From the IMG/VR virus record IMGVR_UViG_3300012573_000004: a stretch of DNA of 64,000 bases, one strand, 5' to 3'. The first letter of the stretch is position 1, and every line of letters starts with the position of its first letter. Of the stretch, positions 2,579-57,684 are shown piece by piece. Below the pieces are notes generated by a model. It was not told where the DNA came from, did no database searches, and worked only from the letters and a program-made list of their open reading frames with translations. A program made the position numbers and the translations under genes. This DNA is from a virus (taxonomy: Duplodnaviria; Heunggongvirae; Uroviricota; Caudoviricetes).

Positions 2579-2595
2579 AATGTTAGGAGAAAAAG

Positions 2596-6906: not shown

Positions 6907-7002
6907 GGAAGATAGGAAAAAGTGCAGTTTTTAAGGTAAGATTCCTTTTCAACTGCACTTTTTGCGTGGGGTGTGATTTTGTGTCCCCTTTTTTATACTC
7001 TT

Positions 7003-8187
7003 CTACTTATTTCCTTTAACTCTATTGTGTCTCCTGCACAACATAGTACAGTTGTCTTCAGTAGAAGATCCACCTTTACTCCATGCTGTTACATGATCTG
7101 CTTCCATAGATTTAAAACTGTGGATTTTTGTCTTTTCTGATTCTTTAGAACTTAAAGCACAATCAGGACAGTTGGATACACCTTTCTCCTGTGCGGCATC
7201 AGTTTGCTCTTTGTACACCTTCCTTTTTGTAGGCTCATCAAAAAGTCTTACATCAAGAAGCTGAGTATTTGATTTACCACTTAAAATGTATTCATAGATG
7301 TTCTTTTTAGCTCTAACAGCTGGATCAGCAAAAAGTTCATCTACCTCTTCTTGTGATTTCTCACCATCATAAGGATCTTTACCCCATTGCTCATAAAATC
7401 CTCCCCAGTCAAGACCTTTCATTTGTGGTTGTGGCACTCCAGGAAAACGAGAAGACACCCAATCAATAACGGTAGAAAAATAACTCTTTAGATCATCAAT
7501 ATCATCATCTTGACGGTGAGATGACATATACCCTTCAATAGATACATCTTTGCTTTCAGCAATCCATTTCAACGCAGTTTTCAACACCTCTTGACGTGCA
7601 GGATCACCTTTAACATAACAACCCCATTTATTTTGCCTAGGATCAGAAGACTTAGAAAACTCTTCTTTTGCTTTGGTGACAAAAGAACCAGAATAAATAG
7701 CATTCCTTAACTCTTGATCATTGAGTGGAATATTAGAAATATTGATAGTTTTAAACCACTCTTTAATCTCTTTTTCCGAACCTGTACACACATACACCAA
7801 CAACTTGGTATCTAAAATAAGCTCTTGTTGATCTTGTGGAAGAGAAGAAAATGTTTGCTCTCCATAATCAGTGTGAATAGCAAAACGTCCAGTGACAAAC
7901 CTTCCAATGGAGGTAATCCTTTGTTGTCCATCTAGCACTTCAAGACGATCATCACCATTGTCATCTTGTCCTACAGAAAAATAAATAAGACCTAGAGGAT
8001 ACTGTTTAAGAATAGAATGAATAACAGCTTCATCTTTTCCACCTGAGTTATAGATATAGTTGCGTTGATATTCTGGTTGGATAACAAGCTTTCCAGAAAG
8101 ACCATAAAGACCTTTTCCTTCATACTCATTATAAGTGAAATCTTTAGTTATCTCTTTAATGGAATAGGTTTTCAACTCTGTTTTCAT
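7003..8187 (-). CDS. DUF262 (GmrSD/ParB-like) domain plus C-terminal HNH endonuclease
   Basis: [14 protein letters not shown] and F..IN motifs of DUF262; C-terminal CPDC...[12 protein letters not shown]...[13 protein letters not shown] motif. Confidence 0.88.
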
Positions 8188-8189
8188 AG

Positions 8190-9332
8190 TTATTTCTCCT
8201 TTGGGTTAGGTAGTTTGTGTTGGATGAGGATGCGAGGGTAGGTGTTGCGCGGGGTGCCATCTTTGATAATCACTGGTCCGGCGTTTAAGTCTGAATAGTT
8301 TGCATATTCTTCCTTTCTATAAACCTTGGTCTTAAGGGCTGGGTCACCTGCTCCACGTTTAGCTATCCCCACAATCTCAAACTGTTCTGGGCTGTATTTG
8401 TCCAAAAAGCTGATGGGAACTCCCATGATCCCTTCATAATCACTTGGTATCCCTGCTGTTACAGGAACTTCAATAGCATCATAGTTATCATACTTTTTAT
8501 AAGCATTAGGATTTTTCATAATCCTCTTGTTGAATCTTAGATTATCTTCCATAGACATCAAAGGAATAGGTTGATGTCTTTTACCATGTTGAATATTGGA
8601 AAACCAGCAGGTATTACCCATATTCTGATAACGCTTTCCATTTTCTTCATATTGTGATTTTAGGATTTCACCTATAAGTGGAACTTCATATTTCATTGAT
8701 TTAATACCACCAGATCCAACCCACATTTTATTATCCTTAATCAAAGGAAATATCTCTTTGTAAGTAATAGCATTCATGCTACCAATGATGGAATACTCCA
8801 CCTCACCTTCTTCCAGCCAAGCTACAAACTCTCTAAACAAAGAAAATGGTGGATTGGTAATGACCATATCAGCTTCATCTCTTAAAGCTGTGATTTCTTC
8901 ACTTCTGAAATCACCATCACCTTCTAGATACTCCCAGGTGAAATCTTCAATATTTACTCTTCCATCTTGATTGACATCTTGGCCATCAAGAACAAAGATC
9001 TTCCCCCTCTCAAAGTCTTTGTCCTTGTCAAACTTATCTTCAAAGAACAAAGACTCACGAGGAATATAAAATGCACCATTCATATTAGACTTAGGCGCAT
9101 AAGAAGTGCTGATAAGTTTCTTTATCCCGTAGTCCTGAAAACGCAATGCAAAGTATTTGGTGAAGTTACTCCATTCAGGATCATCACAGGGAAGCAAAAT
9201 AGTTTTATCCCTAAACACATCAGGGTTATAGTCAAGATAAGCATTCATCTCTTTTTCAATATCAACCCATTGGGTATAAAACTCATCTTGTTTAGCTCTT
9301 TTAGCGTTATGTAGATTGCTATTTTTTGACAT
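8190..9332 (-). CDS. Adenine-specific DNA methyltransferase, EcoRI family
   Basis: [36 protein letters not shown] and [13 protein letters not shown] motifs. Confidence 0.88.
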
Positions 9333-10724: not shown

Positions 10725-11147
10725 CTATGTGATGTGAAGCACACCACAATCATCAATGATTTTCACCATTGCAGAAGCAACATTCAATGGGCTGTCTTCA
10801 GTGAAGTTGAAATTAAAACTATCATTGTGTTTTCCATCATGAATGAAAAGTGCAGCTTCACCAGAGTTGTAAAACTCTGCAGACCACAAGGTTTCACTAT
10901 CTTTATTAAATTTTGATATATCATCAAAGCAGGTAAGAACTACTCCTCCTGCTCCTGTGGGCACCATAATAGTATTATCAGCTGCTTTTCTTCTTATACC
11001 TTGCAAGAATATTCCTGTAGCATGCAAAGTATCACGGTTGATGGCTTCACCATAACCTCCACCAATCCAGTTGTCTTTTAACAGTGCTATTTTTCTTAGA
11101 TCTTTTCTGCTGGAATCTGAAATATCTAAACAATCAAAGAAATCCAT
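10725..11147 (-). CDS. Hypothetical protein, family E
   Basis: ALL.DNWIG.GYG..IN..TL shared with 13549-13962, which lies in the opposite orientation. Confidence 0.8.
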   Translation of the reverse strand: MDFFDCLDISDSSRKDLRKIALLKDNWIGGGYGEAINRDTLHATGIFLQGIRRKAADNTIMVPTGAGGVVLTCFDDISKFNKDSETLWSAEFYNSGEAALFIHDGKHNDSFNFNFTEDSPLNVASAMVKIIDDCGVLHIT

Positions 11148-17100: not shown

Positions 17101-18595
17101 ATGAACTACCAACTCACCAAAGATGAGTTGGTTTCCTGCTTCATCAAAAACCACTTACTATTCTGAGCAATGTCTATGACATTGAAATGAATAGCAGAGG
17201 TAGTCTCCTCCACAGGCGCTATCCCCAGTCCCTGGGGTGAGTCTATTTTATACCTCACATCATGTGTAGCAAAACGCACCATATTTTTAGCAGCATGAAC
17301 ATCTCTATCATCACTATATCCACAGTGAGAACAGAAATAAACCCTTTCATCTAACTGATGTTTATTTTTAGCTCCACAAACACATGTTTGGGTAGTAGCA
17401 TGATGTTTTCCAATCATGGTAGCCCAGTCTTTTTCTTTGAGCAAAGATTTTACTCTTCCCAGTATTCCATACTGAATTTTCTTTCCACCTTTGACATAGC
17501 AAGTTTTCCTCTTCCAAGAAGAAATCATTTCATCCTGGAAGAAGACATGCTCAAAGTGAGACAAATCACTAACAAGCTTATAAGCCATGTCTTTTTTCTT
17601 ATTGGTTAGATGTTGTTCTATCTTCTTTATTTCATTGAGAGTTTTAACATAGTTGTTAGATCCCTTGTGTTGTCTGCTAAGTTTTCTTCTTAGCTTTTTT
17701 AAGCGATCAGGTTCTTCAACATAGAAATCAAACTTCTCACCATCACTTAAAGTGATAGAAGTTTTCAACCCCATATCTATTCCTACATAAGTATCTTTGA
17801 CAAATACTCTTTCTGTGTCTTTAGCACTATATGCAGTAATATGAATATAATAACCATCAGATTTATGAACAAGACGAGCAGTAGAGAAATCAACAGTCTC
17901 AGGAAGCTGTTTTAAACCATTAATACGCAACCATCCCACTTTTTGAACATGAACACGGTTGTTTTTGGTATCTACACGGTAAGTATTTCCATGTTCTTTA
18001 AGACCAATAGAAGATACTTCCTTGCATGGTTTCAATCTTCCAACTTTGTGTCCATTCTTTTTTAATGCAGAAAGACCTTTAATATCATCTTTCATAGAAG
18101 AAATGATTGATTGCTTCATATGAGAACCCAATGTTTTTAGATCACGAGTTTCTATTGACTTATCTTTCATGACAACCTCAGCTTTCTTTAATGAATGAGG
18201 TTTATTACTGAAAATAAGATTGTGAGAAAGAACATGATTCTTAAACCATTTTGCTTCTAGAAAAAGACGAGTGATCTTTTCATCCAAAGTAGGATTTTTC
18301 TTCAAAAATGTAGGATCTACTTTAACAATGTAAGTAGCACAATGCATTGTAGATCTACGTTTTCTTGTTTCCTTGATTGCTTTTTTAATGCGATCTTTGG
18401 TTTCTTGAGAATGCTGTTCAATAGACATAATGGTACGTTTCACCTCCTTCCTTTTGTGAGGATAGACTGTATTTAAAGTTTTGTATTTGAAGATGTTATC
18501 TTCTTGAATATACTATATCACATGACAAAAATATATGCATAGATCACCTGTCTTGCTCACACACTCAAATATCCGTGGGTAAGACAGGTTGTTGC
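17101..18595 (-). mobile_element. IS200/IS605-family tnpB-only (IS1341-like) element
   Basis: Right end CCAACTCA-TCTTTGG-TGAGTTGG then TAGTTCAT; left-end hairpin ACCTGTCTT...AAGACAGGT (18546-18589); no tnpA; left boundary approximate. Confidence 0.8.
17106..18428 (-). CDS. tnpB: TnpB RNA-guided nuclease family protein
   Basis: RuvC-I GIDMG, RuvC-II region FQDE, zinc finger CVC...CSHC, RuvC-III DRDVHAA. Confidence 0.9.
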   Translation of the reverse strand: MSIEQHSQETKDRIKKAIKETRKRRSTMHCATYIVKVDPTFLKKNPTLDEKITRLFLEAKWFKNHVLSHNLIFSNKPHSLKKAEVVMKDKSIETRDLKTLGSHMKQSIISSMKDDIKGLSALKKNGHKVGRLKPCKEVSSIGLKEHGNTYRVDTKNNRVHVQKVGWLRINGLKQLPETVDFSTARLVHKSDGYYIHITAYSAKDTERVFVKDTYVGIDMGLKTSITLSDGEKFDFYVEEPDRLKKLRRKLSRQHKGSNNYVKTLNEIKKIEQHLTNKKKDMAYKLVSDLSHFEHVFFQDEMISSWKRKTCYVKGGKKIQYGILGRVKSLLKEKDWATMIGKHHATTQTCVCGAKNKHQLDERVYFCSHCGYSDDRDVHAAKNMVRFATHDVRYKIDSPQGLGIAPVEETTSAIHFNVIDIAQNSKWFLMKQETNSSLVSW

Positions 18596-28871: not shown

Positions 28872-30710
28872 CTAGAAAAAGATTCCTTTAACCTTATCCC
28901 AGAAACTTAGTGATACATTTCCTCCAGTGTTAACCTCTGGACCAGCCTTAGAAGTGTCACGAGAAGGTGTATCACCACTCATCTTCTGTGGTTGGTAAGG
29001 GGTGGATGAATCTGAAGGAATGAAAGGTGTTTCTTGTGTGTTTCCTGCTGGAGAAACAGGAGTAGTAGAAGGGGTTACAGGGGTTGTCTTTGCTACCTCT
29101 GTTCCTTCATGGGTATCTTCATCAACAGAAGTGGATGGAGACTTTTTGGTTTGTGATGTAGAAACATCTTCACGAGGAGACTTGGAGGTACTTGGAGTCT
29201 TGGAAGTACTTGGTGTAGCTGTGTCCCTTCTTGGTGTTGTGGAAGTACTTGGAGACTCTGACTTGCCTGGCTTATCTGGGGTGTCAGGAGTGTCAGGAGC
29301 ATCAGGCTTATCTGGGTTATCAGGAGTATTAGGCTCATCGGGAGTGTCAGACTTTTCAGGCTCATTAACTATAGCGCCCATACCAAAACTTGCTCCAGTT
29401 CTATCATGGATAACAAACTTCCTAGCAGTCTTGTCAACCTTATATCCCTCTGGAGCTTTAGATTCTGTTAGCTCATATCTTCCTTCAGGAAGAGCAACGT
29501 TAATAAGACCATCTTCTTTATAGAGATCTTCCAAAACACCTTTTTCTTCGCTTCCAGGCTTCTTGTTGTCTGTGACAGTGAATTCTTCTTTAGTACCAAG
29601 ATTCTTAATCTTCCAAGAAGAACCAGCAAGAAGTTTATTGTCCTTATCAGTCTTTCTTAGGGTTAAACCGTTGTCAGAAGGGTACATGTAATCACTCTTA
29701 CGGATAAGGAAATCTTTGGCTCCTTCAACTTGTTTGCCTGCAATGCGGGACACAGAATCAGGCTTAACAAATACCCTTGGTCCACAGGTTGCAAATGCTT
29801 GGTATTCATGGGATAATTCTTTTTCCCCAGTGTCTGGATTCTCAATATATTCTCTACTAGACATCATATATCTTCCATCTTTCCTAGTCTTCAAGGCATA
29901 AGACTTCTCATAGGAAGTATTAATAGAAAAGACATCATCATGTTTCATAAAGAAATCAAATCTTTCACTCAAAGAAAGACCCTTTTCAGGCATAAGTTCT
30001 GGCTTTAGCTTAAGCCTTTGTATGAAATCCTCTCCATAAGGAGAATATCCCTCATATGCTTCTCCTTTCATGCCATCTCCAAAAGTAAACCCCCATTGAT
30101 TATAAAGTTTAGCATTATACTTTTTCCCATTCTCAGGATCTTTCTTCCATTCTACCATCTCTTTAGGGAGATAGTTTTCTGGTTTGAACAACCTATAGAA
30201 GTATTTTTCTTCAATATTAGGATCTCTATCTTCCTTTGCTACGTTAGTAGCAATGAAATACTTATCCTTACCCTTAACTTTCATCAATTTTGGCTTTTTA
30301 TCATCAGGGTAGTTCTGTACTAGGTAGGTGTAGTCCCCTGGAGCATCCCAGCTTGACTCTTCAAGATTATTGAGCTCCTCTTCAGTGGGGTGTTCATAAC
30401 CACCATCTATTGGGGAAGCTCCATCGTAAATAGCTGTATCAACATCTCCTGCCTCTTTGAGCTTATCTTGGAAGTCTTTATCCATAACATCTTCACAATG
30501 TAGCCATTCTCCCCACTTCCAACTGTCTTTAGTATCAGTATCAGATGGGTAAATGTTATCTACATCTCTTTCTTCAGCGGTTGGGTAAGGATGATCCCAG
30601 GGGTAGTCTTCATCAGTCATTTCAGATGCAGAAGCTACTCCCCCCCCTATGACTGTGGATAATGCCAGTGACAAAGCAAACACACTACTAGTCTTCTTTT
30701 TTAGAGACAT
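28872..30710 (-). CDS. Secreted cell-surface protein with SpaA/prealbumin-like (CnaB-type) domain and P/D/T/S-rich linker
   Basis: Signal peptide ending ASA-SE; LTLRKTD...LAG..W...LPEGRYELTESKAPEGY domain; PDTPDKP repeats; C-terminal VNTGG...SFWDKVKGIFF tail. Confidence 0.8.
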   Translation of the reverse strand: MSLKKKTSSVFALSLALSTVIGGGVASASEMTDEDYPWDHPYPTAEERDVDNIYPSDTDTKDSWKWGEWLHCEDVMDKDFQDKLKEAGDVDTAIYDGASPIDGGYEHPTEEELNNLEESSWDAPGDYTYLVQNYPDDKKPKLMKVKGKDKYFIATNVAKEDRDPNIEEKYFYRLFKPENYLPKEMVEWKKDPENGKKYNAKLYNQWGFTFGDGMKGEAYEGYSPYGEDFIQRLKLKPELMPEKGLSLSERFDFFMKHDDVFSINTSYEKSYALKTRKDGRYMMSSREYIENPDTGEKELSHEYQAFATCGPRVFVKPDSVSRIAGKQVEGAKDFLIRKSDYMYPSDNGLTLRKTDKDNKLLAGSSWKIKNLGTKEEFTVTDNKKPGSEEKGVLEDLYKEDGLINVALPEGRYELTESKAPEGYKVDKTARKFVIHDRTGASFGMGAIVNEPEKSDTPDEPNTPDNPDKPDAPDTPDTPDKPGKSESPSTSTTPRRDTATPSTSKTPSTSKSPREDVSTSQTKKSPSTSVDEDTHEGTEVAKTTPVTPSTTPVSPAGNTQETPFIPSDSSTPYQPQKMSGDTPSRDTSKAGPEVNTGGNVSLSFWDKVKGIFF

Positions 30711-30919
30711 TTTTTCTTTTCCTTTCAAGTAAGAGCAAACTGCATATTCACATCAAAGCAGTTTAAAAACATTGGTTTCATATTGATTATACACCTTGCA
30801 TTAATATTTGGATTAATGTCAGCACACATATTTGTGTCCCTTTTTGATTCTCTTTCCTAGCTATAACAAAAAACACCACTAGTTATAAAAACCAGTGGTG
30901 TTTTACTCCCTGTTAGGTG

Positions 30920-32443: not shown

Positions 32444-33064
32444 ATGCCAATTAGAGTAAAAGATGCAGCTGAGATTTTACAAATTTCACCTGGAACTGTG
32501 CGTAATTGGTGTGCTGATGGCAAGTTAAACTACTCCCTTTCTGCTGCTGGTCAAAAGGTTTTTGATTATGACTATCTTATCCAATTTAAGAATGAAAGAT
32601 TAGGAATTGAACAAGAACCAGAAGTCAAAATCTTTTATGCACGGTCTAGTAATAAAAATGATGTTTCTATTGACACACAGCTAAAAAAGATGGAAAGAAA
32701 ATATGGTAAATCTGATTTTTCTTTCACAGACAATGCTTCAGGTCTTAATGAAAATAGAAAAGGGCTAAATAAGCTTATATCATTAATAAAAGAGAATGAC
32801 AAACCCAAAATACTTTATATCACCAACAAAGATAGGTTGGCTATATTTGGCTTTACATATCTTGAAAAGCTATTTGAAAAATGCAACTGCAAGATTGTAG
32901 TTTTGGATTCTGATGACACCAAAGAACCTCATGATGTTCTCATGAAAGATTTCATGAGTGTTTCAGCATCATTTTCTGGAAAGTTTTATGGGCTAAGAGG
33001 ATGGAAGCAAATAAAAAGATTTCTTAATGATGTATTACAAGAGGTGAAAAAGCATGAGAAATAG
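32444..33064 (+). CDS. tnpA: IS607 transposase (MerR-like HTH plus serine recombinase)
   Basis: N-terminal AAEIL.IS..TVRNW HTH; YARSS, D.ASG, DRL..FG and SFSGKFYG motifs. Confidence 0.9.
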   Translation: MPIRVKDAAEILQISPGTVRNWCADGKLNYSLSAAGQKVFDYDYLIQFKNERLGIEQEPEVKIFYARSSNKNDVSIDTQLKKMERKYGKSDFSFTDNASGLNENRKGLNKLISLIKENDKPKILYITNKDRLAIFGFTYLEKLFEKCNCKIVVLDSDDTKEPHDVLMKDFMSVSASFSGKFYGLRGWKQIKRFLNDVLQEVKKHEK

Positions 33065-34640
33065 CAATGAGTTATTCAGATCTATTATCACCTCACCCTT
33101 TGCTGCTTCTGATAAAAATGGACAGGTTGTTGATACAGGAGAAGTATTAAGTGATCTCAAAAGTGAAATAATACTTATTACAGATGTAGCAGAAATGAAC
33201 ATCACAATAGAAAATAAAAACTTAGTAGATAATTTCATAGAATATAGAAAGAAAAGCAAGCTACCCAATCTCAACAATGCAGAAATAGCTAGAAGGTTAG
33301 AAATAGCATACCCTAAGGATTTTTATTATCCTGGGAAATCTGGACGATCTAGGGTAAATAAGCTTTTTGGAGCTAGAGTTGTATCAGAATGCAAATCATG
33401 GATTGAAAGATGTAAAGCAGTAGAAGGGACATCAAATAAATATATCTCTCAAGGTTGGTCAAGAACTGCACAATCTTGCAAACCACGCAATCTATCACCA
33501 AAGATAAACCTAGGAGATGTAGATAAAGCATACTGCACAATGGACATAGTTGATGACACCATTGTCTTAGATTTGGTTGTGCAAGGAAAATGGTACAAGT
33601 TCTACTTTGATTATGATAAAAGATTTCATAATGCTGATGACATAGCAAAACCATCTATCTATGTAGATAATAATGGTAAAGTGAGGTTTTCCTTTCCTGT
33701 TGTGTATAAGTACAACTTCTCTCATTTTAGCAGTAGGTATGTGGTAGGAGTAGATGTAGGAATAACCAACTATGCAACTGTTGTTGTCTATGACACAAAA
33801 GAGAAAAGAATAGCTCACTCTACTACACTTTCACAAAGAGTTCATGGCTTAGCCAATAAAGTCAAAAAGTCTAATGTTCAAGTATCTTCTCTACAGAATA
33901 AGGGAAGAAAAGATGAAGCTATGCTACATAGATCTTCAAATTCCAAAAGGAAAAGAGAACTGGCAATCTTAGCTGCTCAAGAGATTGCTAAGATTTCTTA
34001 TGTTTGGGATAATGCTATTGTAGTTTTTGAAGATCTATCCTGGATTAAAAACACCATGGAAAATGGTAGGTGGAATAGAGGAGAACTGGTTAAAAGGACC
34101 ACTGAACAAGTAGAACTTAATGGTGGAAGAGTTATTAAAACTAGTTGTTATAACACTTCCCAAGTGTGTTGTAGCTGTGGAAGAAAGATAACTTTCAAAG
34201 GATATCATGTTGTAATATGCAACTTTTGTAATACCACATTAGATAGAGACATCAATGCAACTGCTAACGTTGCTAAAAGGATTACTATTTCTAGAAATGA
34301 AAATCCTTTTAGCACTTTTTCTAAGATGATAAAAACTAGAAATACTAAGAAAAATTCTAAAAATGCACACAAGAAAAGGTCTAAAAATGGTTCAGGGAAA
34401 ACATTAAAATTCCCAGGAAGAGATAGGACAAAAAATAAACCAACACCAAAAAGAAAGAAGAGAAAAGAGGTGAAACCATTAACACAATGCTCTGCGCAGA
34501 ACAACAATGATTCTAGGGTAGCGTTAGATGCATTTTGCAGCAGCGACTGTAAATGTATGACCATAAAAGGCAGCATGAAAGTAATCTATGATACAAATGA
34601 CACTTCCAAAATGGATGTTAAATGTATCATAGTGCAATAA
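33054..34640 (+). CDS. tnpB: IS607-associated TnpB
   Basis: GVDVG, VFEDL, TSQVCCSCG...CNFC and DRDINA RuvC/zinc-finger motifs; lysine-rich C-terminal extension. Confidence 0.88.
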   Translation: MRNSNELFRSIITSPFAASDKNGQVVDTGEVLSDLKSEIILITDVAEMNITIENKNLVDNFIEYRKKSKLPNLNNAEIARRLEIAYPKDFYYPGKSGRSRVNKLFGARVVSECKSWIERCKAVEGTSNKYISQGWSRTAQSCKPRNLSPKINLGDVDKAYCTMDIVDDTIVLDLVVQGKWYKFYFDYDKRFHNADDIAKPSIYVDNNGKVRFSFPVVYKYNFSHFSSRYVVGVDVGITNYATVVVYDTKEKRIAHSTTLSQRVHGLANKVKKSNVQVSSLQNKGRKDEAMLHRSSNSKRKRELAILAAQEIAKISYVWDNAIVVFEDLSWIKNTMENGRWNRGELVKRTTEQVELNGGRVIKTSCYNTSQVCCSCGRKITFKGYHVVICNFCNTTLDRDINATANVAKRITISRNENPFSTFSKMIKTRNTKKNSKNAHKKRSKNGSGKTLKFPGRDRTKNKPTPKRKKRKEVKPLTQCSAQNNNDSRVALDAFCSSDCKCMTIKGSMKVIYDTNDTSKMDVKCIIVQ

Positions 34641-36689: not shown

Positions 36690-38024
36690 ATGGCTAGAAG
36701 AAAATCAGCTCCTAAGACTATGACTGATCAAGATCGCTTGGCAAAAAATGAGCGCATCAAAGCTACTGCTATCTCCACACGCAAACGTCGTTCTGGTATG
36801 GATTGCAAGGTTTATTCTGTTAAAGTTTCCAAATCCAGATTAACTGGAGTGCAAAAAGAAGCTTTAACTAGACTTTTCCTAGAAGCTAAATGGACTAGAA
36901 ATGCACTTTTGTCTTCTGGAGTTTTCACTAGAGAAGATCTAAAGAACTTCTCTGATGAAGTTCCAGTTCATACCCCAAACGGTACAGACATAAGAGAAAT
37001 TAGAGTTCTTGGAGGTCAAATTGCTCAAGGTGTATTAGCTGAGCTAAAGACCAATTTAAGACAGCTATCTTCATTAAAGAAGGCTGGACACAAAGTTGGT
37101 CGATTGAATTTCTGCAAAGAGATTACCTCTATTGATTTTGTGCAATATGGGGTTTCTTGGAAATTGAATGCAGAAAAACACAAGATAAAGCTGGCTAATA
37201 TACCTGGTTGGATTAAAGTACATGGTCTTAACCAGCTACCAGAAGGTGCAGAATGTGCTAATGCCAAACTAGTCAAAAAAGCTTCCGGTTACTATATCCA
37301 GATAACCACCTATATTCCCAAAGTGATTAAAGCCACAGAGTCAGGTACAGCAGTTGGCATTGACATGGGTGTTAAGACTGGATTAACCTTGTCAGATGGA
37401 ACCAAGATTAATACTGTATTTGAAGAACCAGAGCGTTTAAAGAGATTGCGCAAAAAGCTATCTCGACAACAAAAAGGCTCTAACAAATATCAGAAAACTT
37501 GGGAACTCATCAACAAAGAGCTAGAAAAGCTTACAAACAAGAAAAATGATGCTGCTAACAAAGTTATTTGCCAGCTAGCTAAAAACGAGACTGTTTATTT
37601 TCAGGATGAAAACATTTCTGGATGGAAGAATAAGAAGTCTAAAGCTAGAGGTAGCAAGAAGATTCATCATGGAATCTTAGGCAGAGTAAAGTCTAGACTA
37701 CAAAAACTAGACAACTCTGTCTGTTTGGATAGATTTTTGCCTACAACTCAACTATGTGTCTGCGGTCTTAAGAATCCACACTCTCTAGATAAACGCATCT
37801 ATTCTTGTACTAGTTGTGGATACACTGAAGATCGTGATGTTCATGCAGCATTGAATATGATAAGGATTGGGAGATTCCTAGAAGAAAACAACTCCACTGA
37901 TCTGGGCCAGATCAGAACTCCTGTGGAGTTTCCTGTAAGACCTGCGGAAATGTCATTTTATGGTATGGAAGCAGGCACTGAGACTATGAAGCAGGAAGCG
38001 GCGATGCCTTTAGCATCGCCGTAG
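36690..38024 (+). CDS. tnpB: TnpB RNA-guided nuclease family protein
   Basis: GIDMG, FQDE, TTQLCVCG...CTSCG, DRDVHAA; clear paralog of the 17106 TnpB. Confidence 0.9.
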   Translation: MARRKSAPKTMTDQDRLAKNERIKATAISTRKRRSGMDCKVYSVKVSKSRLTGVQKEALTRLFLEAKWTRNALLSSGVFTREDLKNFSDEVPVHTPNGTDIREIRVLGGQIAQGVLAELKTNLRQLSSLKKAGHKVGRLNFCKEITSIDFVQYGVSWKLNAEKHKIKLANIPGWIKVHGLNQLPEGAECANAKLVKKASGYYIQITTYIPKVIKATESGTAVGIDMGVKTGLTLSDGTKINTVFEEPERLKRLRKKLSRQQKGSNKYQKTWELINKELEKLTNKKNDAANKVICQLAKNETVYFQDENISGWKNKKSKARGSKKIHHGILGRVKSRLQKLDNSVCLDRFLPTTQLCVCGLKNPHSLDKRIYSCTSCGYTEDRDVHAALNMIRIGRFLEENNSTDLGQIRTPVEFPVRPAEMSFYGMEAGTETMKQEAAMPLASP

Positions 38025-41113: not shown

Positions 41114-42007
41114 TTAAAAATCTTCTTCTACAGGAACAATCCTCAAAGCATCTTGATCAGCCATCTTTTGCTTGAGTTGTTTTTGTTCCAGTTGAGTTTT
41201 TTCAATGTCTTTGTCATATTTTTGTGCTAAATCCACAATCATATCTACTTCTTTTGAAAAGTTACCAAGGATAGATTCAAGCTTATCTGTATACTTTCCC
41301 ATCAACTCTTCTGAAATGACATCATGATTGGCAGCTAAAAAGCAATACAATCTCATGTATTCATCATATTTATTGGAAAAAGGAAAAAGATCAATATGTT
41401 GGATAGTTTTTTGATCTAAAATAAAAACACTTTTCACCTTGTCTAAAAATGTGTTATTGAGTGAATCTATCTTCTTATCAACGCTATGTTGTAGATCAAC
41501 AACCTCAATGGAGGATAGTTCTTTTCTTTGGCCAACAGAAAAAAGATTATCTAGATAAGAAAAATCTTTTCTGGTTAAAGCTTTTCTTTCATCTACTTTT
41601 TGCAACCAAGAAAACAAAAAACCAGAAGAGACAAAAGAGCTTACAGAAAGGATGATAAAAACAGTATCAGAAAGAAAACTTCCTTCTTCAGCAAAAACAA
41701 AAACAATAGATAAAAATCCTAAAACTACCAATGCTACAAAGATAGCCACAGCTACTAAGGTGATAAGAGTTTTGAGCAAAGTAAAAGATACAGTTTTGAA
41801 AAACCCTGATGCAACAACACTGTCATTGTTCTTTTCCCGTGCAAGGTTATCCACATAAGAAAGACCACTAAATGTGGTAGGAAGAAAAGAGATTCCTGAT
41901 GATCCCTTTTTATTAAAAAAGCTGTTTAAAACTACAGAAGAACTTGATTTTCCAATGAAATTGCAGTTGCTGCTGTTGGGGTTAGATATTACTTTCTTAT
42001 TATCCAT
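41114..42007 (-). CDS. Hypothetical two-TM membrane protein, family A
   Basis: NK.VIS.P...NC, PTTF.GLSY.D.L.RE, YD.YM.LY.FL.AN, DA.R.VPVEED. Confidence 0.82.
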   Translation of the reverse strand: MDNKKVISNPNSSNCNFIGKSSSSVVLNSFFNKKGSSGISFLPTTFSGLSYVDNLAREKNNDSVVASGFFKTVSFTLLKTLITLVAVAIFVALVVLGFLSIVFVFAEEGSFLSDTVFIILSVSSFVSSGFLFSWLQKVDERKALTRKDFSYLDNLFSVGQRKELSSIEVVDLQHSVDKKIDSLNNTFLDKVKSVFILDQKTIQHIDLFPFSNKYDEYMRLYCFLAANHDVISEELMGKYTDKLESILGNFSKEVDMIVDLAQKYDKDIEKTQLEQKQLKQKMADQDALRIVPVEEDF

Positions 42008-42092: not shown

Positions 42093-42884
42093 TTAGAAGT
42101 TGGAGATGATAACTTCACTGCTTTTCTTAGAAGCATTCATTCCATAACTCCACTGTGCTTTATCAATCCTAAATCCAGAATACATTTCTCTAATATCAGA
42201 AGAATCATTGTAGGTGAGAAGAATCTTATTATCTTTTCCTACTCTATGTACTAGATCAGCAAACTCTTGATGATTGAAACCTCTATGGGTGTTTCCTTGT
42301 ACTCCATAGAGAAAACTATCATCAAGTTTATAAGGAGGATCTAGGAAAATGAGATCATAAGAAGATAGATCTTCTTGCAATATATCAAAAGCATTACCAC
42401 AAGAGACTTCAAGGTGAGGATTAGAAAAGCTTTCTACTCTATGAACACTACTTGGGGTAAACCTATCTCTAGCAGCTGAAGCAGAAAATCCTCCAGAAAG
42501 AGTTGCTCCTGAAAAAGAACACCTATTGATCACAAAGAATAAGGTAGCAAGCTCCATATCACCAGTAAAGTCTCTATCCTTGATTTTTGCTTGCAAAGAT
42601 TTAAACAGCTCTTTATCTACTTTCCCTAAGTAGGAAGAGATATTTTCAGCTAGCTTTTTAGGATGGTTGATAACTTCATGCCAAAAACATGCTACTGGAT
42701 AAAAAGCATCATATCCATCTACTTTATGTCCCTTTCCTGTAGCATAAAGCTCAAAGCTTCCACCACCAAAAAATGGGGAAAGTATCTTCTCATCCTTACT
42801 ATCAAGATAAGTAGCAAGGGTAGTTTTTGCTCTTGTTTTTCCTCCTGGATAGCGCAGGAGTCCTTTAGTTGTTATTTTGCTCAT
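42093..42884 (-). CDS. dam: DNA adenine methyltransferase, Dam/D12 family
   Basis: LRYPGGK, SPFFGGGS (motif I), DPPY (motif IV), E.II.N C-terminus; target sequence not determinable. Confidence 0.88.
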   Translation of the reverse strand: MSKITTKGLLRYPGGKTRAKTTLATYLDSKDEKILSPFFGGGSFELYATGKGHKVDGYDAFYPVACFWHEVINHPKKLAENISSYLGKVDKELFKSLQAKIKDRDFTGDMELATLFFVINRCSFSGATLSGGFSASAARDRFTPSSVHRVESFSNPHLEVSCGNAFDILQEDLSSYDLIFLDPPYKLDDSFLYGVQGNTHRGFNHQEFADLVHRVGKDNKILLTYNDSSDIREMYSGFRIDKAQWSYGMNASKKSSEVIISNF

Positions 42885-45292: not shown

Positions 45293-45577
45293 TCATTTTT
45301 AAGAAGAAAATATCAATGAAAACAGGTATTTAAAATAGATAAGTTCATAAATTCAAAGGTGAGTACACCACTGGGCTTGTCCCCGTGGTGATTGATTTTT
45401 TCATGATATAAGACAATCTCTTTTTTGTCTAGAGGTGAAATCAAAAAACTTCAAAAGATATATTTGCCCTCCCTATATGAGTGTGGATAACTTTTTCTTC
45501 TAGACAACATTAAATATCAATGCTATGATTTATTTATGTATCAAGAAAACACCCCATCACAAGAAAGAAACATAATC

Positions 45578-46528
45578 ATGGATAACAAGAAAATCATTTC
45601 CCATCCCACACCTAAGACATCACCTGACCTGCTTGTTTATGGCAAGGATAAGTTTGCTAATATCTCTAACCACAATGATAAGGTTGTTGATGACTATATT
45701 ATTCTTCCTCGCAGCTTCAATGATGCAATGAAGTCTTTTCCTATCATTCAGAAGTATCAGAAAGGAAAGTATCCTAAGAAGTTCTTTTGGCGGCAAAAGA
45801 TCAGGGAATATTTCCAGAATAAGTATGGAAAAGAGCGCTATAACAAGGCTGAAGTCAACGAGGAAACTGCACTAATGGGAGCAGCACTTGTTGGTTCATT
45901 TATTGCATTTATCGCACCAATATTTGCCTATCTTAACTTTTTCTGTGAAAATCCTGAATTGGAATCATCACAAAGCAATGCTACTGGCATAGGTTTTATT
46001 GTTTTTATTCTCTACAGTTTTTTAGCAGTATGGTTTGTGGAGTTTAGTCCTTGGGGTGTTAAATATGATGAAGAAGATATGAAGAAGAAACTTCAATACA
46101 AAATCCCTGAGGAAGACAAGAGGTGCGCATATGAAGCTCAGTTCCTGTGCATAGACAAGTATGATGATAAGTTCCCATCTTTCCATAGCAAAGCTATTCT
46201 ATATCTTGCAGAAAAATCTGTATACAAGCTCTTCTTGGATACTGATCCAGACATCTTGAACTCTATGCAGATTGTTCCTCTATCCCAGTCATATGACGAA
46301 TTGATGGATATGCTAGTTTTCACCCTGGCAAATAGTGAAAATATTTCTGTAGAACTCATGGATGATTACACAGAAGAGTTGAATAAGAGGTTGAAAGTTT
46401 TCCAGGAAATGACAGAAGACATGGTTAATGCAACCAAGGATATGGAAGAATTCCAGAAGAATGCATGCCAGGACTCTCTAGATGATGAAGCAGTAATGTT
46501 CATGCCAGTTTCCAGGAAGAACAAATAA
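45578..46528 (+). CDS. Two-TM membrane protein, family A
   Basis: MDNKKIIS.P start, SYDEL..ML.F..AN..NIS..LM..Y, DDEA..FMP. Confidence 0.78.
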   Translation: MDNKKIISHPTPKTSPDLLVYGKDKFANISNHNDKVVDDYIILPRSFNDAMKSFPIIQKYQKGKYPKKFFWRQKIREYFQNKYGKERYNKAEVNEETALMGAALVGSFIAFIAPIFAYLNFFCENPELESSQSNATGIGFIVFILYSFLAVWFVEFSPWGVKYDEEDMKKKLQYKIPEEDKRCAYEAQFLCIDKYDDKFPSFHSKAILYLAEKSVYKLFLDTDPDILNSMQIVPLSQSYDELMDMLVFTLANSENISVELMDDYTEELNKRLKVFQEMTEDMVNATKDMEEFQKNACQDSLDDEAVMFMPVSRKNK

Positions 46529-46704
46529 GCAAGAAAACACACCCTCACCTGTAATAGATGAGGGTGTTTTTGTATATACCACAAAGAGCTAAATAAGAGA
46601 ATAAAAGTTTTTTGCAAGGTTGTATTTACTATTTCAGATTGATTAGTGATACTGTTATGTTTAAGCAAAAAATCACGCAAAATACAAAGGAAAAAGAAGA
46701 TATT

Positions 46705-47655
46705 ATGCCTGATAAAGATATTATCCCAGTGGTAAACTCTACTACCGCACCTCAGGTATGCCGCAAAATTGATGATAATGATGCATATAAACGCTATATT
46801 CTAAGAAACGATCAATGGATAAACCCTAGCTCTACTGATTGGAAGGTTGTTCCTACAAGTTTTTCTGATGCTAGATCTTTGTACTCTTTTATCCAATCAG
46901 GGAAAAAGCCACCAAGATTGTTTAGCTCAACTTCTTCTGCCTTGTCCCTTGTATTGGCATCTTCTGTTATTTCTGCATCTTTTATCTATTTTGCTGCTTA
47001 TGAGACTTTTGCTTCATTGGGAATAGTTTTGAAATCAATCATGGTGTTGCTGTGCTTTCTTGCTTTTTTGGTTGCTATTTCAGTTCCTGCATCCTTGATA
47101 ACTCATCAGTATTCTAAGAAAAATGGAAAGGTTATCACTCAGCTTGATTTTAAGGATTTTTCCTCCCGTTATCCTTCATCTTTAGAAATGATAGATCTTC
47201 ACTCTATAAGGAAAGAATGTACCCCACAATCTCCTAGTGCATCTTCTAGGATTTTTATTTACATTGTGCAAGAATGCACTCAATGCTTAAAAGAAGTAGG
47301 ACAAGCTATAGAGTGCATAGAAAAACTTCCATCAGAAACAGTAGATACTCAAAAATTGCAAAAATCCTATGATGATTATGTCTCTACACTTTCCTTTGCT
47401 GTTGGCAACAAAGATGCCATCTCACTTGATCTCTTAAGAGAATATAGAAATGATCTCAAAGAGATAGCACAAGAAATAACTCTGCAATCAGAAGAGATTG
47501 TAGCACTGTATTCTTCCTATAAAGAAGAAGTAGAAAAATCCAAGGAAGAATACACCTTAGAGATGGATAATATTAAAAGAGAAATGAAACAAGGAGACCT
47601 CAATAGAGCTGATGATATGGCCACATCATTTATGCCATTGAGGAGAGATGATTAA
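46705..47655 (+). CDS. Two-TM membrane protein, family A
   Basis: SYDDY...L.F...N...IS..L...Y; DD.A..FMP ending. Confidence 0.78.
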   Translation: MPDKDIIPVVNSTTAPQVCRKIDDNDAYKRYILRNDQWINPSSTDWKVVPTSFSDARSLYSFIQSGKKPPRLFSSTSSALSLVLASSVISASFIYFAAYETFASLGIVLKSIMVLLCFLAFLVAISVPASLITHQYSKKNGKVITQLDFKDFSSRYPSSLEMIDLHSIRKECTPQSPSASSRIFIYIVQECTQCLKEVGQAIECIEKLPSETVDTQKLQKSYDDYVSTLSFAVGNKDAISLDLLREYRNDLKEIAQEITLQSEEIVALYSSYKEEVEKSKEEYTLEMDNIKREMKQGDLNRADDMATSFMPLRRDD

Positions 47656-47856
47656 CCTAAAGAGAGAAAATCTTATTTTCTCTTCATGACATTATTTGTG
47701 TCCCTTTTATTTGCACTATTGGTATATCTTGTACCTTCTTTTAGGATAGGAGAAAGTACAAGACTTATATGCCATTTTTCTTTCCAAGGAGTACATGCAA
47801 TCATGAGAGTTCAGGCATAGAAAGAGAAGCTTTATCTTTGCGAAGGAAGAATATAC

Positions 47857-47872
47857 TGTGTGTTAAATCACA
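47857..47872. promoter_or_regulatory. CRP/GlxR-like palindromic site upstream of sRNA promoter
   Basis: TGTGTGTTAAATCACA against the consensus TGTGANNTANNTCACA (one mismatch); identical copy at 49187-49202. Confidence 0.55.
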
Positions 47873-47927
47873 TGAAGATATGTGTGTCTTCTCTTGACAA
47901 GAAAGCATTGTACCTATATAGTAGAAG

Positions 47928-48090
47928 ATGTACTTGAGAGAGAAAAAGCTACCGTAATCTCTCTCAAGGACAATATCGTTTCTGCTAAAAACCTACATTT
48001 TCAAAACTGCGACTGCTATTGCTATAGTGGAAACGATGACTTTTCTAGAAAAAACACCTCTTATGAATCACCTACCATAAGGGGTGTTTT
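47928..48090 (+). ncRNA. Candidate three-hairpin sRNA, family R1 copy 1
   Basis: TTGACA (47894)-17-TATAGT (47917) promoter; stems CTTGAGAGAGA/TCTCTCTCAAG and ATCGTTTCTGCTA/TAGTGGAAACGAT; terminator AAACACCTCTTAT/ATAAGGGGTGTTT. Confidence 0.65.
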
Positions 48091-48195
48091 CTTATATCTT
48101 TTTTAAAAAAGCATTGAAACTTCCTGTAGGAAGTGGTACTCTTGGGAAGAAAAAGATGCTATCATTTTTCAATTCCAAAAGGAGTATATCTCACA

Positions 48196-49164
48196 ATGCG
48201 ACAAGATATCATTGAGTTTCCCAACTCATCTAACAGCCCTGATTTTATCTATAAGATAGATAGTTTGAAGAAGTTTCAAGATAATATCTTGAAGCCATAT
48301 TTGGAAAGAGAAAACCCAGAATATCAATGGACAGATAGCACTTGTGATATCACGCCTACAAAAGCTTCTTATATCAAGAAAATGTCTCCTTTACTAAAGA
48401 AGAAAGAAGATGTACCTGCTACAGACAGTATTGTATTCAATGTAGTAAATATGACTAATCTTCTCTTATTCTTCCTTCTTCCAGCACTAGCAGTGTATCT
48501 TTTCTATTTTGGTTCTCCAGATGCAATCATGATATGGGAAGAGGGAGGGATCATAGGAAAAACTATTCATACTTTATTTATCATTTTTTCATATTTTATT
48601 CTTTTATGTTTTGTTTCTCCTATTGCGCTGTTTGTGGGAAAAGTAGCACATGAGTTTCTTGATAAATCCAAAGATCTAGCTCAATATAAAAGAGATAAAG
48701 ACTTCTACAACAAAATGGAAGTAGTAGATATTGCTAAACTACAAGACATTGGAGATACAGTAGGAAACACCCCATTTTATCATGAAATGTTAAACTGCAA
48801 GAACTGCTGTGCTCAAGTAATAAACATCTTGGAGGATATTTCCCTTCTTCCCTATGGAGACTCTGTAGATACTTCACAACTAGAAAAAGCATATGATGAC
48901 TACATTGATCTCATTCTCTTTACTACTGCTAACAGAAATGTGATGTCAGAGCGTCTTTTCAATGACTATATAGAATCTATATACCAAAAGATGAGAACAG
49001 TTCTTTTTGAAGTGGAAAAGCTTAGAGAAGTAGATGGTGATTACAAAAAGCTAATCCATAAAGCTCACAGGGAAACAGAAGAGATCAATGAAGCTATCAA
49101 GCAAGATGATCAAGATAGGGTAGATGATCTCATTATTTCTATGAAAGATCCTTCTGAGTTTTGA
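48196..49164 (+). CDS. Two-TM membrane protein, family A
   Basis: AAGGAG RBS; VDT..L.K.YDDY..L..F..AN and Q.D..R.DD shared with 46705. Confidence 0.78.
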   Translation: MRQDIIEFPNSSNSPDFIYKIDSLKKFQDNILKPYLERENPEYQWTDSTCDITPTKASYIKKMSPLLKKKEDVPATDSIVFNVVNMTNLLLFFLLPALAVYLFYFGSPDAIMIWEEGGIIGKTIHTLFIIFSYFILLCFVSPIALFVGKVAHEFLDKSKDLAQYKRDKDFYNKMEVVDIAKLQDIGDTVGNTPFYHEMLNCKNCCAQVINILEDISLLPYGDSVDTSQLEKAYDDYIDLILFTTANRNVMSERLFNDYIESIYQKMRTVLFEVEKLREVDGDYKKLIHKAHRETEEINEAIKQDDQDRVDDLIISMKDPSEF

Positions 49165-49257
49165 TTGGAGATATAATCATAAATACTGTGTGTTAAATCA
49201 CATGAAGATATGTGTGTCTTTTCTTGACAAGAAAGCATCTGCTTTATATAGTAGAAG

Positions 49258-49430
49258 ATGTACTTGAGAGAGAGACAAGTGACCATGACGATTATTTCTC
49301 AAGTGCAATATCATTTCTGCTGGAAGACCTGCCAGTCACATAAAAACAAGCAACAGCAGAAATGAAGTACCTCCTGACAGAAGAAAACACCTCTTATTGC
49401 ACTACCGCAACCGCAATAAGGGGTGTTTTT
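49258..49430 (+). ncRNA. Candidate three-hairpin sRNA, family R1 copy 2
   Basis: TTGACA (49224)-17-TATAGT (49247); stems GTACTTGAGAG/TTCTCAAGTGC and TCATTTCTGCTG/CAGCAGAAATGA; terminator AAACACCTCTTATTGC/GCAATAAGGGGTGTTT. Confidence 0.65.
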
Positions 49431-49550
49431 CTTATGTCTTTTTCTCCCTCACATTTGTGTCCCTTTCAAGGGTTTTCCTTAATAGAAAAATCCTCCCACA
49501 CCAGGTAATACCCACCTAGTGCAGGAGGATTATTTCCCCCTATATCTTCC

Positions 49551-50174
49551 TTATGCTGCTACACGAACTGTCTTAGTAGTAACATATCCATTGATATTCC
49601 ATGCTGGATACTCTCCAGTATAAGGAGAGTTATCAGGATACATTGCTGGAACACCTTCACCCTCTTCAGGGTTTCCTAGGGAAACAACGGTATGCTCTTT
49701 CCATCCATCAATACCACGCTTAAAGACAGTCATTCCTACTTCAACCTCTTCAACTGGAATAACCTTGCTTTCTAGAAACTTCTTTCCTAGTTGAGTATTT
49801 TCTGGCTGAGCGTTATCAATAGCTTCTAGCATCTCATTGAAATCATGGCCATCTTGCTCTACTGCAGGTGCATCAATGCGCTGGGTGATATCCCAGTTCT
49901 CATCTACAACATAGATACCATTGTCTCCAGGGGAGTGTGCTTCCAAGTTGCGTGGATCCAGGGAAGTGATATACACAGAACCTAGCTTAAAGAAGTTGTT
50001 AGCAATGGTGATAAGAGTAGCCAAACCTCCATCATGTGCCTTTTCACCTAGTCCTTGTGGGGTGTGGAAGGAAGCATACTTCAAAAATGGTGCTACAGAA
50101 TCCATTCCTCCATTCCAGTGAAGCTCAACTCCTACAGTGGAGTTCTTACCAGTAATCAGTGCTCGGTTTCCCAT
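49551..50174 (-). CDS. Hypothetical phage protein
   Basis: Start reassigned to MGNRALI; LHWNGG and GDNGIY motifs; canonical promoter module upstream. Confidence 0.78.
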   Translation of the reverse strand: MGNRALITGKNSTVGVELHWNGGMDSVAPFLKYASFHTPQGLGEKAHDGGLATLITIANNFFKLGSVYITSLDPRNLEAHSPGDNGIYVVDENWDITQRIDAPAVEQDGHDFNEMLEAIDNAQPENTQLGKKFLESKVIPVEEVEVGMTVFKRGIDGWKEHTVVSLGNPEEGEGVPAMYPDNSPYTGEYPAWNINGYVTTKTVRVAA

Positions 50175-56280: not shown

Positions 56281-57684
56281 AAACCTCACCTCAAGACCTC
56301 CCCACCTCTTAGCGAACGAAAGTGAGCGTAGGTGGTGGGAGTAATGGGTTTCTTCAATCTACATATATTCACTAAAGTATGATACACTATATATCAGTGA
56401 ATAGAAGTATAGAATTGAGGTGACAATGAACACGATCACAATCACAACAAAAGTCAGGATATATCCAACTCCAGAACAAGAAGAGTCTTTAAAAAAGACA
56501 CAGAAAGGGTATGTGGATGGATGTAATCTTGTGTCACAATGGGTAAAAGACAATCAAGAGTTATCTCAGAAAAAGATCAACTCAGCATTGTATTCAACTA
56601 TTCGTGAAAACACTGGGTTGGGTGCTCAAATGAGCCAATCTGTGATCAAAACTGTCATTTCAACTTACAAAACTATTCACTCTGACAATAAGAAGTGGAG
56701 TATTTGTCCTAGATATAAAAAGCACAGAGTAGAACTTGTCAGGGGAAGAGACTATTCCCTTATCAAGGATGGAAGACTGTCTATTGGGACTATTGATGGA
56801 AGAATCAAGATTCCTTACACTGAAAACCCATCACTTCCATTGCATGATTACACTCTAGGAACAGCAACTCTTGTTTTCAAGCATGGAAAGTGGATCATGC
56901 ATATTCCTATCACTATTAATGTTGCTGAAGTATCTGACAGTGATATTGAAAACATCATGGGAATTGATGTAGGTCTTAGGTTTCTTGCCACTTCTTATGA
57001 CTCTTCTGGGAAGACAAAGTTCTACTCAGGAAAAGAAGTAAAAAGAAAAAGAGCACACTATAGTCAGCTTAGATCTCAATTGCAGAAGAAGAACACCAGA
57101 TCTTCTAGGAGACGGCTGAAATCTATTGGCAATAGAGAGAACCGCTGGATGACTGATGTAAATCATCAGGTATCTAAGGCACTCGTAGAGTCAGTAGATT
57201 CGCCAACGTTATTTGTTCTGGAAGATTTAACAGGAATTCGTTCTGCAACAGAGATTGTGTGCAAAAAGAACCGCTATTACCAGGTTTCTTGGGCTTTCTA
57301 CCAGCTAAGATCAATGGTTGAGTATAAGGCTCAAAAGAATGGTCACAAGTTCATTGCTGTTGATCCTAGGAATACCTCAAGAGCATGTCCTAAGTGTGGT
57401 TTTACTTCAAAGAAGAATAGAAACAATAAGAATCACTTATTTACTTGCCAATCTTGCAACTATTCAAGCAATGATGACAGAGTAGGTGCTATGAATATCC
57501 ATAGCAAGGGAATCAAGTACCGTATGGATACAACTGCTGAGCATGCTCAGCAGTTACAGGGTGCTAGTCAACCACCCTTAGATGTTCCGCCATTTCAAGG
57601 TGGGAGGGGTAAGCATACTTACCCCGTGAATACCACTGGGCAGGGACAAACCCCTACCTCAACCGTGAGGTAGGGGTAGTTGAT
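56281..57684 (+). mobile_element. IS200/IS605-family tnpB-only (IS1341-like) element
   Basis: Left-end hairpin CCCACCT...AGGTGGTGGG; right end ACCCCTACCTCA-ACCG-TGAGGTAGGGGT then AGTTGAT; left boundary approximate. Confidence 0.82.
56420..57673 (+). CDS. tnpB: TnpB RNA-guided nuclease family protein
   Basis: RIYPT.EQ HTH, GIDVG, VLEDL, TSRACPKCG...CQSC, NDDRVGAMNI. Confidence 0.92.
   Translation: MTMNTITITTKVRIYPTPEQEESLKKTQKGYVDGCNLVSQWVKDNQELSQKKINSALYSTIRENTGLGAQMSQSVIKTVISTYKTIHSDNKKWSICPRYKKHRVELVRGRDYSLIKDGRLSIGTIDGRIKIPYTENPSLPLHDYTLGTATLVFKHGKWIMHIPITINVAEVSDSDIENIMGIDVGLRFLATSYDSSGKTKFYSGKEVKRKRAHYSQLRSQLQKKNTRSSRRRLKSIGNRENRWMTDVNHQVSKALVESVDSPTLFVLEDLTGIRSATEIVCKKNRYYQVSWAFYQLRSMVEYKAQKNGHKFIAVDPRNTSRACPKCGFTSKKNRNNKNHLFTCQSCNYSSNDDRVGAMNIHSKGIKYRMDTTAEHAQQLQGASQPPLDVPPFQGGRGKHTYPVNTTGQGQTPTSTVR

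Follow-up and report, generated by a model that had tools for sequence, protein, structure and literature searches.

Two sibling units in a jumbo phage belong to a predicted structured RNA family that may act in trans

What is made from two short stretches of a phage genome in which a strong promoter runs into a terminator with no gene in between? The question arises around positions 47,853 to 49,430 of IMG/VR virus record IMGVR_UViG_3300012573_000004 (Caudoviricetes), of which we analysed a stretch of 64,000 nucleotides (nt), here called the window; about 83% of the phage genome lies outside it. An original prediction, made from the letters alone, had described a duplicated three-hairpin small RNA (sRNA) with conserved stems and replaced loops. 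We find that the two units are members of a lineage-specific RNA gene family, whose loops may pair with RNAs of the host.

Anatomy of the two units

The units share one layout, and their features are as follows.

47857 to 47872: CRP/GlxR-like site of unit 1, TGTGT-N6-TCACA, centred about -63.5 from the predicted start; presumed to be bound
47894 to 47922, plus strand: sigma-A/70-type promoter of unit 1, TTGACA-17-TATAGT, score 11/12
47928 to 48092, plus strand: predicted sRNA unit 1 (type A), about 165 nt, its ends predicted rather than mapped
47929 to 47972, plus strand: hairpin 1 of unit 1, with a 14-nt loop at 47944-47957 and an unpaired ACC at 47951
47974 to 48036, plus strand: hairpin 2 of unit 1, with a 35-nt loop at 47988-48022 and an unpaired ACCU at 47991
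48049 to 48092, plus strand: terminator hairpin of unit 1, of the phage's generic bidirectional type
49187 to 49202: putative CRP/GlxR-like site of unit 2
49224 to 49252, plus strand: promoter of unit 2, TTGACA-17-TATAGT, score 11/12; spacer 10/17 identical in contigs L006 and L004
49258 to 49430, plus strand: predicted sRNA unit 2 (type B), about 173 nt; 173/173 identical in L006 and 170/173 in L004
49259 to 49307, plus strand: hairpin 1 of unit 2, with a loop at about 49272-49294 and an unpaired ACC at 49282
49311 to 49365, plus strand: hairpin 2 of unit 2, with a 31-nt loop at 49323-49353
49369 to 49375, plus strand: anti-Shine-Dalgarno (anti-SD) 7-mer ACCUCCU in an unpaired linker, type B only; unpaired probability 0.77-0.91
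49383 to 49430, plus strand: terminator hairpin of unit 2
49489 to 49531, minus strand: terminator of a convergent unit, separate from that of unit 2

The two units resemble each other from well upstream: as originally described, they share a near-identical leading block (91 nt at 47853 and at 49183, 92% identity), and in alignment the similarity runs on to the terminators. Their TTGACA-17-TATAGT promoters, at 47894 and 49224, were likewise recovered, as the top two (11/12) among 21 promoter-like sites between 45 and 51 kb; here the rank of the two sites counts and not the number of sites, for which shuffles average 18.8. The hexamers are retained in relatives although the spacer drifts, and this promoter is distinct from the TTGACC promoter/leader family that is common in the phage. 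A CRP/GlxR-like site, which resembles the GlxR consensus (PMC4254451, in excerpt), precedes all 11 units that have upstream DNA (13 were found, two of them cut by contig ends), with its centre at -62.5 or -63.5. At one mismatch the window contains seven such sites, compared with 0-6 in 20 shuffles. Another is found at 10728-10743, upstream of tRNA-Pro.

The stem and loop sequences quoted in the original prediction were all found in place, and each unit folds into three hairpins, with a minimum free energy of -53.6 kcal/mol (z -7.2) for unit 1 and -64.3 kcal/mol (z -6.8) for unit 2; 0 of 200 shuffles were as stable. The plus and minus strands have nearly the same fold energies (-52.0/-49.6 for unit 1 and -57.8/-56.7 for unit 2). 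The third stem had been taken for a specific part of the scaffold; it belongs instead to a generic terminator type of the phage, AAAACACC...GGTGTTTT, which occurs five times in the window, hairpin 3 among these. The unit-specific part therefore consists of two hairpins: the stem of each measures 12-14 bp, and the loop is 14-21 nt long in the first and 31-35 nt in the second. Both loops of both units are predicted to be single-stranded, and ACC, a motif chosen post hoc, is predicted to be unpaired in each of the two loops in all seven distinct units of the family introduced below.

Neither unit has an open reading frame (ORF) led by a ribosome-binding site (RBS), as had been stated. An ATG that was overlooked at that time lies 6 nt past the -10 box, at the predicted start, which raises the alternative of a leaderless mRNA encoding a small peptide from +1. 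This ATG is invariant, about 33% of mRNAs are leaderless in C. glutamicum (PMC3890552, in excerpt), and the predicted peptide would have 35 amino acids (aa) in type B and 9 aa in type A. Yet the start of the ORF sits inside the 12-14-bp stem, type B has no synonymous variation, and the products of 9, 27, 31 and 35 aa agree in their first five residues only. The type B unit of L004 and the type A' unit of L007 also carry 2-nt deletions that shift the frame; these sit in simple repeats of low-coverage contigs and might be assembly errors. We give this alternative only the slimmest chance; as judged from the sequences, the units contain no conserved peptide.

Copies, types and conservation in related phages

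Seven metagenome contigs (L001-L007) were retrieved by exact pattern. They match the window in long blocks of 82-93% identity and one of them extends over 382 kb, from which we conclude that the source is a jumbo phage; L001 repeats L006 and L003 repeats L002, and these are not independent. A covariance model, built from the family's own sequences and thus yielding scores that are not independent of them, detected 13 copies at 91-129 bits in eight sequences, namely the window and all of L001-L007; the 16 sources searched gave no further credible copy. There is no third paralog in the window, where the other best matches of the model were antisense echoes of hairpin 1 or had E > 1. Pattern matches in GTDB (L009-L015) were rejected as chance, having neither downstream hairpins nor a match to the covariance model.

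Twelve of the 13 copies are complete and comprise seven distinct sequences of three types: A (unit 1), B (unit 2) and A', which combines A-like loops with a B-like hairpin 2 base and is found on the single-copy contigs L002/L003 and L007. A and B occur as a pair in the window, L001, L004, L005, L006 and run X5, while A' occurs alone; on one contig of run X18 the start of type B stands alone, with the upstream gene fused directly to it. Runs X3 and X5 contain the window's unit 1 unchanged, and run X6 gave nearly full cover with no differences. In L005, an IS605/TnpB element (about 6300-7840) lies between two copies of about 270 bp, made up of the end of the gene at 48196 and the promoter block of unit 2, and this duplication leaves a full promoter ahead of the RNA. 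Overall, copy number and neighbours differ among the relatives, and at least one copy is retained on every related contig examined.

The family appears to be undescribed. Gathering-level matches to Rfam 15 in the window were five tRNAs only, and a search by E-value of 47700-49600 gave 19 weak matches, all far below threshold. A literature search found no account of this RNA, and its motifs are absent from seven supplementary files of PMC10690425 (files 1 and 2, which may hold alignments, were outside the search). With no Rfam match, 13 copies, and conservation from the -10 box to the terminator, the original proposal of an undescribed structured phage RNA family, with its own promoter and under selection, is upheld.

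How sharply conservation follows the predicted transcript is best seen in unit 2, which is identical to its counterpart in L006 over 173 of 173 nt, compared with 10 of 17 in the promoter spacer, 182 of 213 in the flanks (Fisher p 7e-9) and 276 of 322 third codon positions of the adjacent gene. In unit 1, hairpins 1 and 2 are identical at 108 of 112 positions, compared with 153 of 177 in the flanks (p 0.004) and the same 276 of 322 third codon positions (p 0.002), and the remaining differences of this unit are mainly in the linker and terminator loop. Conservation begins at the -10 box and stops at the terminator, and such sharp edges argue for selection on the transcript, loops included. On this comparison of sequences, the loops themselves are under selection.

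The stems tell a more mixed story. Compensatory changes had been claimed for all three; using anchored pairing on the seven distinct complete units, we counted two-sided changes at 3 of 15 pair positions in hairpin 2, at none of 15 in hairpin 1, and at 2 of 18 in hairpin 3, where they are confined to the loop end. In a MAFFT alignment, which misplaces the 3' arm of type B, 95.9% of cells were paired, compared with 37-59% in slid registers, and several G-U wobbles are maintained in the stems. Two-sided and G-U-keeping changes are what one would expect from an RNA and not from a DNA cruciform; over three types, they are supportive and do not amount to formal covariation.

The loops are nearly invariant inside a type and different across types. 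They were said to be replaced, and their sequences do differ, but they are better described as diverged: when they are compared in register, 8 of 12 nt of loop 1 (shuffle p 0.023) and 7 of 9 nt of loop 2 (p 0.040) are common to types A and B, an agreement that is not significant with free sliding (278/2000 and 1037/2000). Similarly, the picture of a constant scaffold presenting variable loops is kept insofar as the loops are type-specific, which fits fixed specificities, and is limited by there being three types with homologous loop cores. Across types A and A', all three substitutions observed in the loop cores are C/U or A/G and are compatible with pairing to a fixed target, a bias that offers weak support given 51/67 transitions in the neighbouring gene. 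Of the anti-SD-like motifs reported earlier, the full ACCUCCU is present only in type B; A' has CUCCU, and type A has neither.

The best protein matches of the window, which has a guanine-cytosine content of 37%, are to Streptomyces and Arthrobacter phages; protein matches on plasmids are actinobacterial in eight of the ten best rows, and Bifidobacterium plasmids also match. Based on these phage and plasmid matches, the host is probably actinobacterial. No relative was found in IMG/VR by three DNA patterns or two protein queries (one weak 28-aa match), nor among INPHARED phages at E 0.01, and blastn against plasmids gave nothing better than E 0.5. Partial shares of the phage DNA were detected in 20 runs, whose 16 source studies cover habitats unrelated to one another, a spread that suggests a human-associated contaminant; jumbo phages of skin have been reported (bioRxiv 2025.05.01.651599, in excerpt).

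Possible modes of action

Each unit is bounded by a promoter and a terminator, contains no conserved ORF, and is conserved in structure and sequence (over seven distinct sequences of three types), which are some of the features expected of a trans-acting phage sRNA. No partner protein is in view, and the loops are long and exposed, constant inside a type and different from one type to another. On these grounds and given the separate promoter, our preferred reading, which we place at about an even chance, is that the units are sibling trans-acting sRNAs of a jumbo phage whose loops pair with host (or distant phage) RNAs. Early in infection they would be transcribed by the sigma-A polymerase of the host, whose CRP/GlxR factor possibly adjusts this transcription, and they would pair loop-first and free of chaperones, as 6C/B11, C4 or Sib RNAs do. 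The unpaired ACC(U) cores would nucleate on GGU/AGGU sites, for example in ribosome-binding or start regions, the letters that flank these cores would set specificity, and types A and B would have come to serve different targets after duplication of a cassette of membrane gene and sRNA. ACCU might in this way spare the RBS regions of the phage itself: AGGT is present in 11 of 82 predicted RBS regions of the window, including those of all four TnpB genes, a count with no host baseline. A more daring version, which we consider rather unlikely, is that of modular counter-defence RNAs, in which a fixed two-hairpin chassis with exchangeable loop pairs (A, A', B) would act as orphan type I antitoxins that silence mRNAs of toxin or defence genes of the host, the loop variants tracking host alleles; it also assumes a host sigma-A promoter controlled by CRP/GlxR.

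Several observations weigh against pairing in trans. The family comprises seven distinct sequences and three types only, and mosaic recombination could contribute to the high identity. The full anti-SD is confined to type B, and the loops, in which 43 of 102 nt are A and 24 are C, have an A/C-rich make-up that differs from the runs of C in the loops of 6C RNA. Within the 64-kb window, the best duplexes of the four loops with potential targets were no better than those of shuffled loops, the single low value (3/100, one of six tests) falling on overlapping intergenic sites near 6111; pairing between unit 1 and unit 2 was not beyond shuffles either. Cognate pairing between loop 1 and loop 2 beats most shuffles (21/500 and 39/500) and cross pairs do not, which in these models could reflect a compact fold rather than free seeds. 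The RNA runs, by contrast, are neutral on expression: X17-X20 (shares 0.05-0.10) gave, in four contig sets, scattered low cover over genes and spacers alike, a pattern that is typical of carried-over DNA.

The same loops could instead serve proteins. A decoy or sponge, in which the unpaired ACC motifs or a kissing-loop fold titrate a host RNA-binding protein or an anti-phage RNase, would explain why ACC is invariant and predicted to be unpaired in both loops of every distinct unit, with additional unpaired copies in several terminator loops and the B linker, and why cognate loop pairs are predicted at -6.9 and -7.3 kcal/mol, compared with -3.4 and -3.0 for cross pairs. The loops are A-rich, and A-rich loops are also typical of protein decoys. 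A decoy, however, requires the motif only, yet type B is invariant over 173 nt and A and B differ widely outside the cores; the terminator-loop ACC is missing from type A of L001, L004, L005 and L006, and the loop-loop pairings of A and B fall at non-homologous positions, and hence lack covariation, and stand out in two of six tests (p 0.04 and 0.08). We judge a decoy, for which the GGA logic of CsrB/RsmZ (PMC4211561, in excerpt) provides the model, to be unlikely. Less probable than this is a type I or orphan antitoxin of the Sib/Ibs kind, antisense to the mRNA of a small hydrophobic toxin that is encoded opposite to it or, if the RNA is a captured mimic, by the host, where it would silence that mRNA during infection. 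The minus strand of linker and hairpin 2 does encode a partly hydrophobic peptide of 17-32 aa in nine of ten units examined, starting at the same GTG after an in-frame TAA, with 6 of 34 substitutions in second codon positions and an AGGAG(G) in types B and A'. But the frame is broken by a 1-nt shift in the window's unit 1, an allele identical in runs X3 and X5, and shifts near its end in L002/L003; its GTG lies within a terminator arm and has no RBS at a suitable spacing, nor is a promoter conserved on the minus strand; its hydrophobicity is within shuffles (34 to 349 of 500); a control region has a similar codon-position bias (5/18); and the three peptides scanned match no Pfam or NCBIfam family. 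Such a role would be most plausible, as a minor option, for an orphan antitoxin.

Two further alternatives are weaker still. The units could be a non-functional promoter-terminator cassette or DNA hairpin that was copied with the family A membrane genes described below and homogenised by recombination; the mosaic region with its variable gene content between the units, the IS605 element of L005 flanked by the duplicated promoter block, and the almost equal folding of the two strands would all fit. The course of identity, which is 10/17 across the promoter spacer, reaches 173/173 over the transcript and drops after the terminator, the two-sided and G-U-keeping changes of hairpin 2, and a strong promoter leading straight into a terminator make this very unlikely. 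We would give about as little, or slightly less, to a guide or scaffold RNA (a TnpB omegaRNA, TIGR or IS110 bridge RNA) or a packaging-type RNA. Four TnpB-family genes do lie in the window, and bridge RNAs are similar in size and two-loop layout. The guide-like role raised by the original prediction nevertheless found no backing: the longest exact match to the 3' ends of the four TnpB genes is 11 nt, the window has no CCA/UG-flanked 8-12-nt spacers or arrays (TIGR criteria as given in an excerpt of PMC12045711), no Nop or IS110 domain was found in the 71 window proteins scanned, and the loops are terminal and fixed per type, not diversified as guides are.

A tRNA or tRNA mimic was also considered and rejected, as there is no cloverleaf and ten comparisons of the loops with 39 mostly phage tRNAs were within shuffles (best 6/60), as was mimicry of the tRNA elbow or anticodon by the loops. 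A resemblance over 29 nt (90%, E 0.6) between loop 2 of type B and intergenic DNA of Arthrobacter phage Talia1610 is regarded as chance: the model found no homolog at that site or elsewhere in that genome, the matched stretch is unique to that phage, and the 16-mer in question has eight unrelated matches in IMG/VR. Talia1610 itself harbours, at 2503-2605, an intergenic element that carries no annotation; it has a T-arm like that of a tRNA and a short acceptor-like stem, is not called by ARAGORN or Rfam and is likewise unique to this phage.

Returning to sibling trans-acting sRNAs, known systems offer partial parallels. PreS and VpdS depend on Hfq, which Actinobacteria are not known to have. 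One comparison is with 6C/B11 (RF01066), in which the unstructured loops of two hairpins base-pair to ribosome-binding sites (PMC10470900, in excerpt); it acts without RNA chaperones (according to the title of PMC6486639, cited in that paper) and probably shares the host phylum; our units, in contrast, are phage-encoded and duplicated, have no cytosine-run loops and no Rfam match, and carry longer, A/C-rich, type-specific loops. In the C4 antisense RNA of phages P1 and P7, loops set target specificity on a common fold (PMC12197685, in excerpt), but C4 measures 77 nt compared with 165-173 nt, the units lack an Rfam match, and no complementary target or antirepressor gene for them is found in the window. 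Like Sib/Ibs, with its paralogous sRNAs and two variable recognition domains (PMC2943612, in excerpt), the units have a short hydrophobic frame opposite, but theirs is broken in unit 1, without RBS or promoter, and within shuffles in hydrophobicity. PreS, VpdS and misc_4, from the lytic cycle of phages, and the prophage sponge SprY likewise come from separate phage genes for sRNAs and target RNAs of the host in trans (a prediction in the case of misc_4); no sequence match to them was seen, and the phage sRNA table in the excerpted review (PMC12197685) shows no actinobacterial-phage entry and no sibling pair, of a jumbo phage or otherwise. CsrB/RsmZ also repeat a short motif in loops and linkers, whereas the units carry ACC instead of GGA, in two invariant copies only, and have no known partner protein. 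We infer that the family functions as a variant of the phage trans-acting sRNAs.

Neighbouring genes and other features of the window

Each unit was said to follow a family A membrane gene, and in the window this is the case:

46705 to 47655, plus strand: family A membrane-protein gene, 316 aa, upstream of unit 1
48196 to 49164, plus strand: family A membrane-protein gene, 322 aa, between the units

However, only two of the six family genes in the window precede a unit, and other genes precede the units in relatives. As four family A genes in the window have no unit, the link between gene and unit is most likely due to cassette duplication rather than function. The two proteins share 23% identity (E 2e-19), have no match in Pfam, PHROG or NCBIfam, and belong to a family of 66 clusters among 1.84 billion proteins. 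The family is expanded and specific to this lineage; its membrane proteins have a YDDY motif at the C terminus, and its genes lie at 1655-3498, 41114-42007 and 45536-49164.

The window further contains five tRNAs, methylases, a polynucleotide kinase, many small orphan genes and the features listed here.

17106-18443, 33054-34640, 36690-38024 and 56420-57673: four TnpB-family genes, one adjoining a resolvase and one a TnpA
3943, 15226, 50197, 50708, 51985, 54533, 55234, 58411, 59095 and 63221, minus strand: copies of the TTGACC promoter/leader
6978, 10511, 13416, 16517, 18697, 22063, 30831, 31779, 35579, 38610, 43248, 47695, 49454 and 58704, plus strand: TTTGTGTCCC

The AGGT in the RBS regions of all four TnpB genes sets them apart from most native genes. 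The recurrent promoter/leader, of an early type, consists of TTGACC-17-TAAAGT/TAATAT followed by GAGGAAAACAC ahead of an AAGGAG RBS; its leader motif GAGGAAAACAC matches the 5' arm of the phage terminator family and could pair with the 3' arm. The motif TTTGTGTCCC occurs 14 times on the plus strand of the window and never on the minus strand, and is possibly a polarised replication, packaging or operator motif. On the minus strand, the phage encodes a surface protein that has a SpaA domain and a tail rich in repeats (28872-30728) and whose relatives lie on large contigs, a GmrSD-N/HNH nuclease adjoining an EcoRI-family methylase (7003-9332), and a separate D12-class adenine methylase (42093-42884).

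For the biology of the phage, loops that stay almost invariant across strains that are about 85-90% identical would point to a strong selective target in the host, and the three natural types provide ready material for loop swaps. Should defence or toxin mRNAs of the host prove to be the targets, the family would represent an RNA-based route of counter-defence; if the target is a protein, it would represent a new decoy motif.

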